DNA of 64,000 bases. Source: an uncultured Actinomycetes bacterium (lineage in GTDB: Bacteria > Actinomycetota > UBA4738 > HRBIN12). A model generated the notes under the pieces. It saw nothing but the letters and a program-made list of their open reading frames with translations. It ran no database searches and was not told the origin of the DNA. A program made the translations under genes and the position numbers. Within the stretch, counting starts at the first letter, position 1, and each line of letters opens with the position of its first letter. The stretch lies in NCBI GenBank assembly GCA_963749895.1, contig CAVVOG010000003.1:987151-1051150 (forward strand). Reading direction: 5' to 3'. This document shows positions 49,802-54,876 of the stretch, in pieces.

Positions 49802-50851
49802 TCAGCCCTCCGCGGGAGCCTCCGGCGTGGAGGCCTGCGTCTCGGACTTGATGTCGATCCGCCACCCCGTGAGCCGCGCCGCGAGGCGCGCGTTCTGGCC
49901 CTCCTTGCCGATCGCGAGGGACAGCTGATAGTCGGGGACGATCACCTGCGCGGTCTGGGAGTCCGGATCGATCCGGACCTCCTTGACCTTCGCCGGCTGG
50001 AGCGCATTCGCCACGAGCTCGGCGGGGTTGTCGGACCACGGGACCACGTCGATCTTCTCGCCGCGGAGCTCCGTGACCACGTTGCGGACGCGCGAACCCT
50101 TCGGCCCCACGCACGCACCGACGGGATCGACCGCGGGTTCGTACGAGAACACCGCGATCTTCGAGCGGTGCCCGGGCTCGCGCGCGACGCCCTTGATCTC
50201 GACGACGCCGTCCTCGATCTCGGGCACCTCGAGCTCGAACAGCTTCTTCAGCAGTCCGGGGTGGGTCCTCGACACGACGATCTGCGGGCCCTTCGCGCCG
50301 CGCCTGACCTCCGTGATGAACGCCTTGAGCCGCTCGCCGTTGCGGTACGGCTCGGAGGGGACCTGTTCCGCCTGCGGCAGGAGCGCCTCGACCTTGCCCA
50401 GGTCGAGCAGCGTGTAGCGACGTTCGGACTGCTGCACGATGCCCGTGACGATGTCGCCCTCTCGACCGGCGAACTCCTCGTAGGTCATCTCGCGCTCGGC
50501 GTCGCGGAGCTTCTGGAAGATCACCTGCTTGGCGGTCTGGGCGCCGATCCGTCCCTTGAAGTCCTCGGCGACCTCGACCTCCTCCTCGGAACGGATCTCC
50601 ATCACGAGGGTCTCGCCGTCCTCCGCCTCGACCTCGTCGAGCACCTGCTGGAACATCCGCATCTCACCGGTCTCGGGGTCGATCTCGGCGCGGAACCCGA
50701 CGAAATCGTCGTCGGCGGTGGGGTTCTCCTGCTTCCAGGCGGACTTGTAGGCGGCGGCCATCGCCTCCTCCAGGCCCTGGAGGATGGTCTCGAACGCGAT
50801 GCCCTTCTCGCGCTCCAGTTCCCGGAGCGCCGCGATCATCTCTGCGTTCAT
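49802..50851 (-). CDS. nusA: Transcription termination/antitermination factor NusA
   Basis: N-terminal RNAP-binding domain, then S1 and two KH domains. Start is ATG 50851 (MNAEMIAALRELEREKG). The 157 upstream track codons are artifact. Confidence 0.9.
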   Translation of the reverse strand: MNAEMIAALRELEREKGIAFETILQGLEEAMAAAYKSAWKQENPTADDDFVGFRAEIDPETGEMRMFQQVLDEVEAEDGETLVMEIRSEEEVEVAEDFKGRIGAQTAKQVIFQKLRDAEREMTYEEFAGREGDIVTGIVQQSERRYTLLDLGKVEALLPQAEQVPSEPYRNGERLKAFITEVRRGAKGPQIVVSRTHPGLLKKLFELEVPEIEDGVVEIKGVAREPGHRSKIAVFSYEPAVDPVGACVGPKGSRVRNVVTELRGEKIDVVPWSDNPAELVANALQPAKVKEVRIDPDSQTAQVIVPDYQLSLAIGKEGQNARLAARLTGWRIDIKSETQASTPEAPAEG

Positions 50852-51312: not shown

Positions 51313-51330
51313 CCGGTCCCACCTCCTCGA

Positions 51331-51355
51331 AGAAAAAGGTGGGCGCGCGCCCACC
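51331..51355 (-). terminator. Intrinsic terminator/attenuator: GGTGGGCGCGCGCCCACC hairpin followed by a T-tract on the minus strand, immediately 5' of the rimP SD
   Basis: Perfect 18-nt GC palindrome followed by TTTTTCT on the transcribed strand. It lies between the proS-like stop and the rimP start. Confidence 0.6.
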
Positions 51356-51419
51356 TCCGGCTCGTGCAACGGTACGTCTGTCGTTGGGGAGTATAGCGGA
51401 GGCCGTCCCGCGGAGCCGC

Positions 51420-52637
51420 TCAGGGCAGTCGATCGAGGCCCGCGAGGATCTCCTCGGGGAGGTCGGTCAAGGCGACGGAGGCGGTGTCGCCGGTGTGGCG
51501 GAGCGTCAGATCGCCCAGGCCGTCGGCGACACCGCGGGTTCCCACCGTCGCCCGCAGCGGCGACCCGAGCAGGTCGGCGTCGGCGAACTTGCGCCCGGCC
51601 CGCTCGACCCGGTCGTCGAGGTAGACCGTGGCGCCGCCCGCCTCGAGCGCGTCGTGGAGGTCGGCGGCTGCGGCCGCGGCCCGGGTGTCGTCGGGCGTGA
51701 CCAGCACGACCGTCACCGCGAACGGGGCGAGCGCCCGCGGCCACACCGGCCCCTTCTCGTCGGCGCACCGGACGGCGGTCGCCCGGACGAGCGCCTCGGG
51801 GTCGACCACGCTATCGCGGGCGACCACGAGCCCCCGGCGGGCCTGCAAGGGCGTCCCGCACGCCGGACACGGGTCGCCCTCGCGTGCGGGCACGAGGTCG
51901 GCCCAGGTGTCGACGGCCACATCGCGGCCGATCACGAGCCCCTTCACGTGGTGATCGTCGAGGTTCGCTCCGGCCGCCCACGCCCCGCGGGAGGCGACGC
52001 CGTGATCGGCCACGACCGTCGCCCCCGGATGGTCGTGGGGACCCATGAACCCCTTGGAAAGCTCGCGACGGGCGAAGCCGTCCTCGTCGAGCCGCGCGAG
52101 CGTCCCCGGCGCGACCACCGCGGCGAGCTTGCCCTCGTCGACGGCACGGTCCCCGGGCACGATCGCGAGGAGCAGGGCCCCGTCGACCTCGTAGGCCATC
52201 GTCTTGAGGTTCGCCTCGACCGGCAGGCCGAGCGCCTCGGCCGCCGTCTTCATCGTGGTCGCCCCGGGCGTCGGCACGACCTCGAGGACCGCTGAGCCGT
52301 CCGGCGGCACGGGCTCGGGAACCCGGCGGGAGGCCGCCGAAAGGGTGGCGGCGTCTCCGCACGATGGGCAGACGAGCAGCCGTAAGTCGCCCTCGTCGAT
52401 CGTCACGACCGAGAGCGACGCGTCCGCGTCGCGGGCCGCGATCACGTCGAGGCCGACCGCCGCGGGGTCGAGCGAGCTTGCACGCTCGAACACACGCTCT
52501 CCGAGCCAGGTCCGCTCGAGCGACCCGTCGACGTTGCGGACGAGGTACCCGCCACGGACCAAGAGGCGGTCGGCCTCGCCGCGGACGCCCGCAGGCGCAT
52601 CGCGGAGCGTGGCGATCGTGTGCTCGGTGGCGCGCAT
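51420..52637 (-). CDS. Truncated ProRS-like protein retaining the N-terminal segment, INS editing domain and anticodon-binding domain, but lacking class II catalytic motifs 2 and 3
   Basis: The N-terminus MRATEHTIATLRDAPAGV..ADRLLVRGGYLVR matches bacterial ProRS. An INS/YbaK-like block (VVPTPGATTMKTAAEALGLPVEANLKTMAYEV...) and an anticodon-binding block (...VWPRALAPFAVTVVLV...YLDDRVERAGRKFADADLLGSP) follow. At 405 aa it is about 170 aa shorter than bacterial ProRS. The FRDE/MKDAYSF and GCYGIG motifs are absent. Confidence 0.7.
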   Translation of the reverse strand: MRATEHTIATLRDAPAGVRGEADRLLVRGGYLVRNVDGSLERTWLGERVFERASSLDPAAVGLDVIAARDADASLSVVTIDEGDLRLLVCPSCGDAATLSAASRRVPEPVPPDGSAVLEVVPTPGATTMKTAAEALGLPVEANLKTMAYEVDGALLLAIVPGDRAVDEGKLAAVVAPGTLARLDEDGFARRELSKGFMGPHDHPGATVVADHGVASRGAWAAGANLDDHHVKGLVIGRDVAVDTWADLVPAREGDPCPACGTPLQARRGLVVARDSVVDPEALVRATAVRCADEKGPVWPRALAPFAVTVVLVTPDDTRAAAAAADLHDALEAGGATVYLDDRVERAGRKFADADLLGSPLRATVGTRGVADGLGDLTLRHTGDTASVALTDLPEEILAGLDRLP

Positions 52638-52837
52638 CGGCTCGGCACGCTACCAGCCGTCGTTGACGCACCCTTCGACACCGTGCCACCATCGCCGTCC
52701 GATGTCGACGCGGCAGAGCTGGTGGTGGCCCCAGGGCTCGTGAGCCTGGTGCCACCGCGCGACGCCGCACCCGCATCACCCACGAGCCCCGGGCCCCCAG
52801 GTCCGGGGTTCTCGCGTTTCCGAGAGGATGTGACCCG

Positions 52838-54313
52838 ATGGAGCTGCAGATCCGACCCGACCGGGACGAGTTCGACCGCCTCGCGGCCGACTGGCCGCTG
52901 GTCCCCGTCTGGGCGGAGCTGCTCGCCGACGTCGCCACCCCCGTGGGCCTGTTCGACGCCGTCGCCGGCGACGGCCCCGGGATCCTGCTCGAGTCGGTCG
53001 AGCGCTCGGAGCGCTGGGGCCGCTACTCGTTCGTCGCCGGCGATCCGGCGGCGACCCTCGTGGTCGACCGCGACGGCGCCCGACTCGAGGACGTCGCGCG
53101 TGACCTCCCGGCGGTCCCGGACGCGGAACCTCGCGAGGCCCTGACCCTGTTCGCCCACGCGCTCCGGGGACCGCGGCTCCCCGACCTCCCGCCGCTCACC
53201 GGAGGGCTGATGGGGATGCTCGCGTACGAGGCCGCCGGCCTCCTCGACGGACATCCCGCCCCGCGCGCCGACGATGCGCCGTGCCCGCCGATCTCGCTGC
53301 TCGTGATCGACCGCGCCGTCGTGTTCGATCACTGGCGCCAGCGGATCGTGCTGGTGGCCCACGCCCCGGCCGGCGGCTACGACGACGCCGTGGCCGCGCT
53401 CGGCGAGCTCGCCCGGAAGATCGCCGGCGCCACCCCCCCGCCGATCGCCCAGATGGGCTCGCCCGATCTGGCCGACGGCGACCCGAACATGCCCGATCAG
53501 CGCTACCGCGACACCGTCGCCACCTTCAAGGAGCACATCCTCGCCGGCGACATCTTCCAGGGCGTCCCCTCGCGTCGGGTCTCGTTCCCGGCGCCCGGGG
53601 GCGGCTTCCCGATCTACCGGCGTCTGCGGGTCACGAACCCCGCGCCCTACATGTTCTATCTCCGGCTGGGTTCGATGGAGCTCGCCGGCTCCTCACCCGA
53701 GCCGCTCGTGCGCGTCGAAGGCCGCCGCGTCTCGACCCGCCCGATCGCCGGCACCCGTCCCCGCGGCCAGACCGAGGTCCGCGACCGCCTCCTGGAGCAC
53801 GAGCTGCTCGCCGACCCGAAGGAGCAGGCCGAGCACGCGATGCTCGTCGACCTCGCCCGTAACGACCTCGGGCGCGTCTGCGTCCCCGGCTCGGTCCGCC
53901 CGACCGAGCTGATGCAGGTCGAGCGGTTCACGAAGGTGATGCACATCGTCTCGACCGTGGAGGGCGAGCTCCGCGAGGACCAGCACGCCCTCGACGCGCT
54001 CGCCGTGACCTTCCCCGCCGGCACCGTCACCGGCGCCCCGAAACGCCGAGCGATGGAGCTGATCGCCGAGCACGAGCCGACCCCCCGCGGCCCCTACGCC
54101 GGCGCGGTCGGGTACCTCACGTTCGCCGGCGACCTCGACTTCTGCATCACGATCCGCACCGCGGTCGTCACCGACGGCGTCGTGAGCGTCCAGGCCGGCG
54201 CCGGCGTCGTCGCCGACTCCGACCCCGAGACCGAGCTCCGCGAGACGAAGGCGAAGGCCGCCGGTCTGATCCCGGCCGTGGCGCCGGCAGGCGCGAAGGA
54301 GACCGCCCGATGA
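52838..54313 (+). CDS. Anthranilate synthase component I family (TrpE/PabB chorismate-utilizing enzyme)
   Basis: LLESxERxxxGRYSF motif and the chorismate-binding C-terminal domain. Forms an ATGA overlap with the downstream amidotransferase. Confidence 0.9.
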   Translation: MELQIRPDRDEFDRLAADWPLVPVWAELLADVATPVGLFDAVAGDGPGILLESVERSERWGRYSFVAGDPAATLVVDRDGARLEDVARDLPAVPDAEPREALTLFAHALRGPRLPDLPPLTGGLMGMLAYEAAGLLDGHPAPRADDAPCPPISLLVIDRAVVFDHWRQRIVLVAHAPAGGYDDAVAALGELARKIAGATPPPIAQMGSPDLADGDPNMPDQRYRDTVATFKEHILAGDIFQGVPSRRVSFPAPGGGFPIYRRLRVTNPAPYMFYLRLGSMELAGSSPEPLVRVEGRRVSTRPIAGTRPRGQTEVRDRLLEHELLADPKEQAEHAMLVDLARNDLGRVCVPGSVRPTELMQVERFTKVMHIVSTVEGELREDQHALDALAVTFPAGTVTGAPKRRAMELIAEHEPTPRGPYAGAVGYLTFAGDLDFCITIRTAVVTDGVVSVQAGAGVVADSDPETELRETKAKAAGLIPAVAPAGAKETAR

Positions 54314-54876
54314 TCCTCGTCGTCGACCACTACGACTCGTTCACCTACAACCTCGTCCAGCTCGTCGAGTCGCTCGGCCGCGACACGACGGTCGTGAAGT
54401 CGGACGAGAAGCCCGCCGACGAGTTGGTCACCCTCGAGCCCGAGGCGGTGATCCTCTCCCCCGGCCCCGGCCACCCCCGCGACGCCGGCTGCTTCACCGA
54501 GCTGCTCGACACCCTGCCCGCCACGACCCCCGTGCTCGGCGTGTGCCTCGGCCACCAGGCCCTCGGCCTGCAGTGCGGCGGCACGGTCGACCGCGCCGCC
54601 CCGGTCCACGGCAAGGCCTCGCTCGTCTACCACGAGGGCCGCGGGATCCTCGAGGGCGTCACCGTCCCGTTCGAGGCGGGCCGCTACCACTCGCTCGTCG
54701 TCGAACGCGACGACCTGCCCGAGGAGCTCGAGCTCACCGCCTGGACCGAGGACGGTCTCGTGATGGCCGCCCAGCACCGCGAGCTGCCGCGGTTCGGCGT
54801 CCAGTTCCACCCCGAGAGCATCCTGACCCCCGAGGGCCCCAGGATCGTCGAGAACTTCCTGCGCCTCGCGAGCTGA
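54310..54876 (+). CDS. Glutamine amidotransferase component II (TrpG/PabA)
   Basis: Class I GATase triad (GVCLGHQ...HPES). Confidence 0.9.
   Translation: MILVVDHYDSFTYNLVQLVESLGRDTTVVKSDEKPADELVTLEPEAVILSPGPGHPRDAGCFTELLDTLPATTPVLGVCLGHQALGLQCGGTVDRAAPVHGKASLVYHEGRGILEGVTVPFEAGRYHSLVVERDDLPEELELTAWTEDGLVMAAQHRELPRFGVQFHPESILTPEGPRIVENFLRLAS

Follow-up and report, generated by a model that had tools for sequence, protein, structure and literature searches.

In prolyl-tRNA synthetase (ProRS) of the bacterial type, the editing insertion (INS) by itself lacks specificity for the tRNA: in Escherichia coli, deacylation of Ala-tRNA-Pro needs the anticodon-binding domain (ABD), which reads G35/G36, and not the acceptor stem (PMC3973320). 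Reviews describe INS as always fused to an active ProRS. The trans-acting factors of the INS superfamily are all single-domain proteins (PMC11295145), as a sequence-only reading of the DNA analyzed here had also stated; among them, ProXp-ala reads G72/A73 of the acceptor stem and YbaK takes its specificity from ProRS (PMC3973320). An editing domain combined with an ABD is found in crenarchaeal ThrRS-ed (PMC11295145), a Ser-tRNA(Thr) hydrolase (NF011500). Within the Actinomycetes, Streptomyces and Kitasatospora carry ProRSx, a full-length active synthetase encoded beside a tRNA-ProX gene, and truncated forms of ~200 aa, consisting of the ABD only, in a murG/tRNA operon (PMC10404621); a 2022 survey of aminoacyl-tRNA synthetase (aaRS) duplications gives ProRSx as the only ProRS-derived paralog (PMC9437257). 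Here we describe a gene at the proS locus of an uncultured actinomycete, in a 64-kb stretch of contig CAVVOG010000003.1 (the window), whose product has lost the whole aminoacylation core of ProRS and has kept INS and ABD. We call this protein mini-ProRS. Targeted full-text literature searches yielded no description of a core-less protein with INS and ABD. The sequence-only reading had supposed the protein undescribed, which agrees with the literature searched; the architecture is, however, not unique, and it recurs in other lineages under generic annotations.

Mini-ProRS resembles each of these systems in part. With bacterial-type ProRS (TIGR00409/PRK09194), its direct ancestor, it shares the locus, INS, the ABD at the C terminus, the CxxC knuckles and the three-dimensional arrangement (TM 0.75-0.81, predicted models), and would share the dependence of INS on the ABD for selecting tRNA-Pro; but it has neither motifs 1-3 nor the proline/ATP site, scores below the family cut-offs and could edit only in trans. 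With ProXp-ala and YbaK it has in common a homologous hydrolytic fold, the catalytic Lys (K145, E. coli K279), the pocket His (H230, E. coli H369) and the proposed task of clearing mischarged tRNA-Pro in trans for an INS-less ProRS. Those deacylases are single domains, whereas mini-ProRS descends from INS and carries its own ABD and core scaffold. The closest functional analogy is ThrRS-ed, likewise an aaRS-derived editing domain with an ABD that proofreads in trans. ThrRS-ed, however, belongs to another synthetase family, is archaeal, has an unrelated editing fold and matches mini-ProRS in the ABD only (E 0.03); moreover, its pairing with ThrRS-cat is experimentally established, whereas the catalytic partner of mini-ProRS is postulated. 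The ProRSx proteins are also ProRS derivatives of Actinomycetes, some of them truncated with an ABD (PMC10404621), but mini-ProRS keeps INS and sits at the canonical proS locus, with trpE/G and rimP-nusA-infB as neighbors. We rejected a relationship to ProRSx, given the different locus and the lack of any tRNA gene in the window by tRNA scan.

Results

A ProRS that has lost its aminoacylation core

The mini-ProRS open reading frame (ORF; Table 1) starts with ATG and has GC contents of 0.80/0.53/0.92 at the three codon positions, like other real genes in the window, whose overall GC is 70-75%. It lies directly upstream of rimP-nusA-ylxR-infB-rbfA-nrnA-truB. Pfam recognizes tRNA_edit (PF04073, aa 123-232, E 6e-13) and HGTP_anticodon (PF03129, aa 308-398, E 2e-12), and gives no match to the class II core (tRNA-synt_2b, PF00587) even at E<=1. 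The best NCBIfam matches are ProRS equivalogs, far under their cut-offs (PRK09194, 198.1 bits versus 558; TIGR00409, 115 bits versus 306.7). In a phmmer search of PDB sequences, residues 1-54, 83-273 and 284-393 align as separate blocks to Pseudomonas aeruginosa ProRS (E 6e-31), and Enterococcus faecalis ProRS also aligns in three. Mini-ProRS thus shows the INS and C-terminal ABD that characterize bacterial-type ProRS, and neither its core motifs nor its scores. The sequence-only reading had placed a 405-aa gene upstream of rimP-nusA-infB and had matched it by eye to ProRS at the N terminus, INS and ABD alone; both points are upheld by these searches and by alignment with E. coli ProS.

We mapped the deletions by alignment with the real E. 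coli ProS sequence and with the nearest intact homolog, P0011. Deletion 1 corresponds to E. coli residues 61-186 and takes out motif 1 together with motif 2 (FRDE...MKDAYSF); the earlier estimate, roughly 60-175 with motif 2 missing, was close, and motif 1 is lost as well. Motif 1 forms the dimer interface of class II synthetases. Deletion 2 comprises E. coli residues 414-432 plus 440-449, so that GHIFQLGTKYS ... MGCYGIG, including the motif 3 strand, is gone; the replacement of motif 3 by a shorter stretch had been correctly read, and that stretch is aa ~274-282. Both deletions are in frame and together remove ~165 aa. Mini-ProRS did not align end to end, with intact motifs, to E. coli ProS or P0011; such an alignment had been named as grounds for abandoning the idea. 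These results confirm that mini-ProRS is a bacterial ProRS minus its whole aminoacylation core, with INS and ABD intact. We infer that the protein is unable to aminoacylate, since none of motifs 1, 2 and 3 is physically present.

Between the deletions, remnants of the core persist. Residues 60-105 are predicted to form strands 65-69, 74-79, 85-89 and 96-98 of the class II sheet, and conservation of C90 and C93 extends from the window clade (G1; mini-ProRS and its close homologs) to intact and core-less homologs. Weak zinc-ribbon matches of mini-ProRS trace to its two CxxC pairs; we rejected these as a new zinc-ribbon feature, both pairs being ancestral and present in intact actinobacterial ProRS.

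The editing site and the ABD are conserved

On the numbering of the real E. coli ProS, the editing residues T257, K279, D350 and H369 correspond to T123, K145, D211 and H230 of mini-ProRS, and the INS loop G196-x-x-G-P200 is present. Mutagenesis of the E. coli INS has assigned roles to T257, I263, T277 and D350. The literature singles out K279, L266 and H369 (PMC3973320; bioRxiv 10.1101/2020.09.11.293571): K279A is the standard editing-dead mutant of E. coli ProRS, and H369 is the gatekeeper against Pro-tRNA-Pro. The four editing residues and the GxxGP loop are invariant in the 11 members of the window clade and in 19 other proteins of ~400 aa without motifs 2 and 3, as they are in 83 longer homologs with a degenerate core and in 59 intact enzymes.

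We then quantified retention as the share of consensus residues kept over all 140 columns of the alignment in which intact ProRS shows conservation of 85% or more. For INS, it is 85% in the window clade, 92% in the other ~400-aa proteins and 93% in the degenerate-core homologs; for the ABD, the values are 89%, 90% and 91%. In the core, retention drops to 6%, 7% and 35% for the part holding motifs 1 and 2 and to 5%, 5% and 32% for the part holding motif 3.

Within the acyl pocket, the window clade has fixed three changes: M129, A132 and N143, equivalent to I263M, L266A and T277N in E. coli. Since L266A in the E. coli INS lowers hydrolysis of Ala-tRNA-Pro and raises that of Ser-tRNA-Pro (bioRxiv 10.1101/2020.09.11.293571), the clade's INS may have shifted in its specificity for the amino acid.

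Predicted structure

An AlphaFold2 model built from a 77-sequence alignment has a mean predicted local distance difference test score (pLDDT) of 95.8 and a predicted template modeling score (pTM) of 0.86, with no disordered segment. A second model used an alignment of 22 core-less homologs only, chosen so that intact ProRS could not impose its geometry; it has the same secondary structure (pLDDT 92.9, pTM 0.84). By Foldseek, the 77-sequence model matches the whole bacterial ProRS chains 2j3l, 8w8j and 5ucm at TM 0.77-0.81, and both models superpose on full-length bacterial ProRS at a query-normalized TM of 0.75-0.81. The N-terminal 59 residues and the residual strands therefore appear, in the models, to be a scaffold that holds INS and ABD in their native placement. 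The N-terminal remnant itself is modeled at pLDDT >90, has a ratio of nonsynonymous to synonymous substitution rates (dN/dS) of 0.34, and keeps 64% of the positions conserved in intact ProRS.

Origin by truncation in situ

The nearest intact ProRS is P0011, of 569 aa and with a normal PF00587 match, which is 40% identical to mini-ProRS overall and 45% over INS and ABD. It comes from another uncultured actinomycete assembly, and a relative with an 84%-identical catalytic half is also from a metagenome-assembled genome (MAG) labeled "uncultured Actinomycetes." The P0011 locus reads ispG ... GATase-Chorismate_bind <-> proS-rimP-nusA-ylxR-infB, and wherever flanks exist, the gene of the window clade occupies the same position between the divergent Chorismate_bind/GATase pair and rimP-nusA-ylxR-infB. 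In a neighbor-joining (NJ) tree of INS and ABD columns with bootstrap, the window clade is monophyletic (100%), and its sister is the group with P0011, P0012 and P0132 (63%). Given the shared syntenic position, mini-ProRS is the positional ortholog of proS, an in-situ truncated descendant of the bacterial-type proS of its lineage and not a duplicated paralog, as had been proposed from the sequence.

Recurrence in other lineages

A HMMER search of 1.84 billion cluster representatives (50% identity) returned 4,194 matches, and we classified the 149 best outside the clade's own representative. About 15 are proteins of ~370-420 aa without motifs 2 and 3, a few of which may be truncated gene calls; 80 have 450-596 aa with both motif patterns degenerate; 17 are intact enzymes and 23 are fragments of intact enzymes. 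These class counts are not abundances, because families that evolve fast are over-represented when clustering is done at 50% identity.

Outside the window clade, the core-less proteins of ~400 aa comprise P0136/P0285, P0143/P0191 and a diverse Anaerolineales set of ~404 aa (P0138/P0286, P0158 at L030 10001-11215, P0176, P0221, P0277, P0151, P0165 and P0160), annotated as "YbaK/EbsC family protein" (NCBI, HEY5984226.1) or "prolyl-tRNA synthetase" (JGI). The boundaries of their deletions are the same as in mini-ProRS. Over INS and ABD, each group is 50-65% identical to a different intact ProRS, as against <=42% to the window clade. In the NJ tree, the Anaerolineales group is split from the window clade at 91-100% support; P0136/P0285 nest with intact P0025, P0015 and P0149 (70-94%), with the window clade placed outside their branch at 78%; and P0143/P0191 join intact P0171 weakly. 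The separate nearest intact enzymes and these splits indicate that the architecture arose independently at least twice on robust evidence, and probably four times. The genomic contexts of the other core-less groups offered no functional clue.

The longer degenerate-core proteins include P0089 (L028 6125-7699), P0139, P0141, P0144, P0162, P0174 and ~60 others. They combine INS and ABD, with all editing residues, with degenerate motifs 2 and 3; PF04073 and PF03129 match 80/80 of them and PF00587 20/80, being undetectable in 60/80. They may mark intermediate stages on the way to the same non-charging function, or a parallel path by which it was reached.

Proposed function

We propose, with moderate confidence, that mini-ProRS is an ABD-guided, trans-acting deacylase of mischarged tRNA-Pro that serves a separate, INS-less ProRS. 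The protein would work in three parts: the INS hydrolytic domain, the ABD, and a scaffold that combines the ~59 N-terminal aa with the core strands and their two CxxC knuckles and would span the ~70 Angstrom between the ABD and INS sites. The ABD would dock on anticodon bases G35/G36 of tRNA-Pro, so that the acceptor end could reach the INS pocket, where misacylated tRNA-Pro would be hydrolyzed in trans. Ala-tRNA-Pro would be the most likely substrate, the three pocket changes (I263M, L266A, T277N) might broaden the range toward Ser, and Pro-tRNA-Pro would be spared through the conserved gatekeeper His H230. As INS lacks tRNA specificity of its own, it could have been freed from the synthetase only together with the ABD and a spanning scaffold. 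In evolutionary terms, an ancestor may have had both a bacterial-type and an INS-less archaeal/eukaryote-type ProRS; the INS-less enzyme would then have taken over charging, and selection would have kept only the proofreading half of the old enzyme. In this proposal, the deacylase activity, substrate identity and expression of mini-ProRS are inferred, as are the existence and type of the second ProRS.

The housekeeping charging would be performed by a second ProRS encoded elsewhere in the genome, most plausibly of the INS-less archaeal/eukaryote type, because such enzymes are common in the class Actinomycetes. Streptomyces often has both types, with 42 bacterial-type and 34 archaeal/eukaryote-type sequences from 46 genomes (PMC10404621). 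With the archaeal/eukaryote-type proS of a Streptomyces plasmid record as query, all 120 protein-database matches listed were from Streptomyces or Embleya, at >=84% identity, and the INS-less ProRS of 470 aa (PF00587 + PF03129) is widespread in these two genera. A protein search with the catalytic half of P0011 returned short fragments only and did not return P0011 itself, and is thus uninformative about a vertical paralog.

Several observations weigh against this proposal. No second ProRS was found: with intact ProRS and an approximate Thermus thermophilus archaeal-type sequence as probes, tblastn of the window and of all loci retrieved, including the 20-kb neighborhoods in two relatives, matched nothing but the mini-ProRS gene. 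The pocket substitutions, L266A included, mean that Ala specificity should not be assumed for mini-ProRS. The dN of mini-ProRS (0.18) is high compared with nusA (0.014) and infB (0.037), which indicates constraint relaxed relative to a true aaRS; judged from these rates, the gene evolves much faster than a housekeeping synthetase would. The core-less proteins of other lineages lie at unrelated loci, with only the window clade occupying the proS locus; those of Anaerolineae may coexist with an intact, INS-containing ProRS, and such coexistence would argue for a function beyond supplying a missing INS. Finally, the inter-domain geometry of the AlphaFold2 models is learned in part from ProRS-like covariation.

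Some of these points lead to an alternative that we consider unlikely: that mini-ProRS is a tRNA-Pro deacylase whose main substrate is not Ala-tRNA-Pro but Ser-, Cys-, Abu- or azetidine-carboxyl-tRNA-Pro, acting alongside other Ala-editing factors. The three substitutions fixed in the clade speak for it, given the shift from Ala-tRNA-Pro to Ser-tRNA-Pro hydrolysis caused by L266A in E. coli (bioRxiv 10.1101/2020.09.11.293571), and core-less paralogs in other phyla probably coexist with an INS-containing ProRS, which suggests that they do not merely duplicate the cis-acting INS. However, M129 and A132 may compensate each other in volume, the remaining pocket and catalytic residues, including the gatekeeper His, match an Ala-specific INS, and the other independent ~400-aa groups have I/V and L/V at the positions of M129 and A132.

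Aminoacyl-tRNA synthetase folds have also been reused without catalysis, as in HisZ and the accessory subunit of Pol-gamma. By analogy, mini-ProRS could serve as a scaffold, chaperone, sensor or regulatory subunit that binds tRNA-Pro or the actual ProRS, INS being kept only for binding the CCA end. The ABD is the part that evolves most slowly (dN 0.12, the lowest of any region), and the N-terminal and core-strand remnants, which have no hydrolytic purpose, are kept and confidently folded. We nevertheless find this improbable, because all known INS catalytic residues are strictly invariant in >110 homologs with a missing or degenerate core, which is difficult to account for if the protein does not hydrolyze. 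Nor is any regulatory partner or link to an operon visible: mini-ProRS is preceded by a conserved promoter-like block of its own, and rimP by its own leader.

Purifying selection and authenticity of the gene

We estimated dN/dS by the Nei-Gojobori method from seven orthologs, those of the window and of six relatives whose DNA was recovered. For the whole gene, dN is 0.18, dS 0.69 and the median dN/dS 0.25; by region, the ratio is 0.34 for the N terminus, 0.32 for the core remnant, 0.21 for INS, 0.23 after INS and 0.24 for the ABD. These values are comparable to those of the adjoining rimP (0.25) and ylxR (0.21) in the same genomes, where the trpE-like gene has 0.10, infB 0.07 and nusA 0.04. 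None of the seven orthologs has a stop codon or frameshift at dS ~0.7. Together with the ratio, this shows purifying selection on mini-ProRS, and the earlier view of in-frame deletions in a gene retained for a function, rather than one in recent decay, holds.

It is accordingly very improbable that the gene is a functionless, slowly decaying relic of proS, held open by chance, by high GC or by signals of neighboring genes within its DNA. Such a relic would agree with the raised dN relative to the neighbors, with the scarcity of stop codons in high-GC sequence, and with an upstream intergenic region that also holds the divergent operon's trp leader. But the dN/dS of ~0.25 extends across the domains, lengths stay at 405-408 aa without frame-disrupting changes in more than 10 lineages at dS ~0.7, GC3 is 0.92 in frame, conservation is concentrated at functional residues, and independent lineages have reached the same end-state. 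Furthermore, rimP has a conserved TATACT and leader of its own, downstream of the mini-ProRS stop codon, so the ORF is not needed merely to carry a promoter for the rimP operon.

In the protein database, homologs form about ten 90%-identity clusters (405-408 aa, 66-83% identical), none of which has a PF00587 match; at least ten independent assemblies, from JGI, ENA, NCBI and Logan, carry the gene. A contig scan with mini-ProRS recovered a relative in MFD09779.bin.2.169 (CAVOYV01; uncultured Actinomycetes), and a metagenome scan contributed two further clade members, both partial. By tblastn, residues 1-56 of P0011 map to 52637-52470 and residues 200-569 to 52469-51411, the coordinates abutting at 52470/52469, and the lost segments have left nothing behind in any other frame. 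A frameshift or misassembly, another ground for doubt that had been raised, is thereby excluded, and the comparisons support both deletions being ancient. An assembly or sequencing artefact, in which proS was frameshifted or collapsed in a long-read MAG, can practically be dismissed even though the source contig measures 1.65 Mb and probably derives from long reads, and many ProRS genes on long contigs appear as split fragments, because independent assemblies agree on an identical architecture and the missing segments left no trace. We also rejected a split ProRS: the absent pieces do not adjoin one another and are buried within the fold, and the vicinity contains no fragments of this kind.

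Separately, N-terminal ProRS fragments of 220-390 aa are frequent on very long contigs (e.g., P0434, 1.0-Mb; P0458, 1.47-Mb). They probably represent proS split by frameshift errors in long-read MAGs, and are a caution against screening for truncated synthetases by length alone.

Features surrounding the gene

Upstream of mini-ProRS, a candidate extended -10 element lies within a block, CTGGTAGCGT, that is invariant in 7/7 clade loci despite ~0.7 synonymous divergence. A generic sigma-70 promoter scan gave no hits. Actinobacterial -10 elements follow the rule TANNNT. By conservation and this rule, the element suggests a leaderless or near-leaderless mRNA.

Between the mini-ProRS stop codon and the rimP start, an invariant TATACT is followed by a perfect hairpin plus TTTTTCTT in the rimP leader. 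Alternatively, the partner of the hairpin's 3' arm could be GGAGGTGGG, the Shine-Dalgarno sequence of rimP. Conservation of the element reaches 100% across six loci; a generic terminator scan missed the hairpin, and the fold of the whole leader is not unusually stable (z = -0.1). We regard it as a candidate autoregulatory attenuator of rimP-nusA-infB.

On the opposite side, a leader ORF with three tandem Trp codons and a conserved hairpin with a T-rich tail precede the Chorismate_bind/GATase genes, with conservation of the hairpin and of the WWW block across five related loci. The leader resembles a classical trp attenuator, so the gene pair is probably trpE/trpG and not pabB/pabA. An Rfam search gave no match. 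Further along the rimP operon, NusA of the window clade has ~350 aa and no Pfam S1 match on record (also in L022, 11779-12831), and that of the sister lineage with intact ProRS (L024) has 425 aa and an S1 match.

Table 1. Positions in the window of mini-ProRS, its parts and the elements around it (aa, residues of mini-ProRS)
Feature	Position	Strand	Basis
Complete coding sequence of the core-less ProRS (mini-ProRS), 405 aa + stop	51420..52637	-	ORF list, domain matches, homologs, dN/dS 0.25
N-terminal ProRS remnant, aa 1-59: TLRDAP motif, helix 21-28, hairpin, helix 44-54	52461..52637	-	Alignments with intact ProRS and E. coli ProS
Remaining class II sheet beta-strands ahead of INS, aa 60-105, with first CxxC (C90, C93)	52323..52460	-	Aligns to P0011 ~189-245
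INS editing domain, aa ~106-250	51888..52322	-	PF04073, E. coli ProS residue mapping, conservation table, dN/dS 0.21
Post-INS strands: second CxxC (C257, C260), deletion 2 site (aa ~274-282), motif-3 helix remnant	51768..51887	-	Alignments
Class IIa ABD, aa 291-405, signature LDDR..G.KFADADL.G.P	51423..51767	-	PF03129, lowest regional dN 0.12, invariant columns
Candidate extended -10 element TGGTAGCGT, 7-9 nt upstream of ATG	52647..52655	-	Conservation
Element between mini-ProRS stop and rimP start (51312)	51330-51395	-	Conservation in six loci
Invariant TATACT of this element	51395-51390	-	Conservation in six loci
Perfect hairpin GGTGGGCGCGCGCCCACC of this element	51355-51338	-	Conservation in six loci
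Leader ORF of 13 codons, MSTRQSWWWPQGS*	52702-52743	+	Three tandem Trp codons; WWW block conserved in five related loci
Hairpin CCCCGGGCC-CCCA-GGTCCGGGG and T-rich tail	~52786-52822	+	Conservation in five related loci
Chorismate_bind gene, probably trpE	52838-54313		Trp-like leader
GATase gene, probably trpG	54310-54876		Trp-like leader
nusA	49802-50851	-	

Discussion

What this locus adds to the described systems is an INS freed from its synthetase together with the ABD, which fits the lack of tRNA specificity in INS itself. A wider proposal, which we offer tentatively and hold to be somewhat short of an even prospect, is that bacteria have repeatedly turned a redundant bacterial-type ProRS into an anticodon-guided trans-proofreader ("ProRS-ed"). 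Here this would have happened at the proS locus after takeover by an INS-less archaeal/eukaryote-type enzyme, with the pocket remodeled to new substrates, and the degenerate-core homologs would belong to the same large, unrecognized family. The recurrence of the architecture and its dozens of degenerate-core relatives suggest a broad, uncharacterized class of tRNA-Pro quality-control proteins. If the proposal is true, the family is a natural demonstration that INS needs the ABD.

There is also a consequence for genome annotation: with the labels "YbaK/EbsC family protein" and "prolyl-tRNA synthetase" in current use for such proteins, a genome such as this one would be scored as having a canonical proS that it lacks. 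The proofreading of tRNA-Pro serves as a model for fidelity in translation, and mini-ProRS would offer a compact, naturally occurring scaffold on which to study the coupling between anticodon binding and an editing site far from it.

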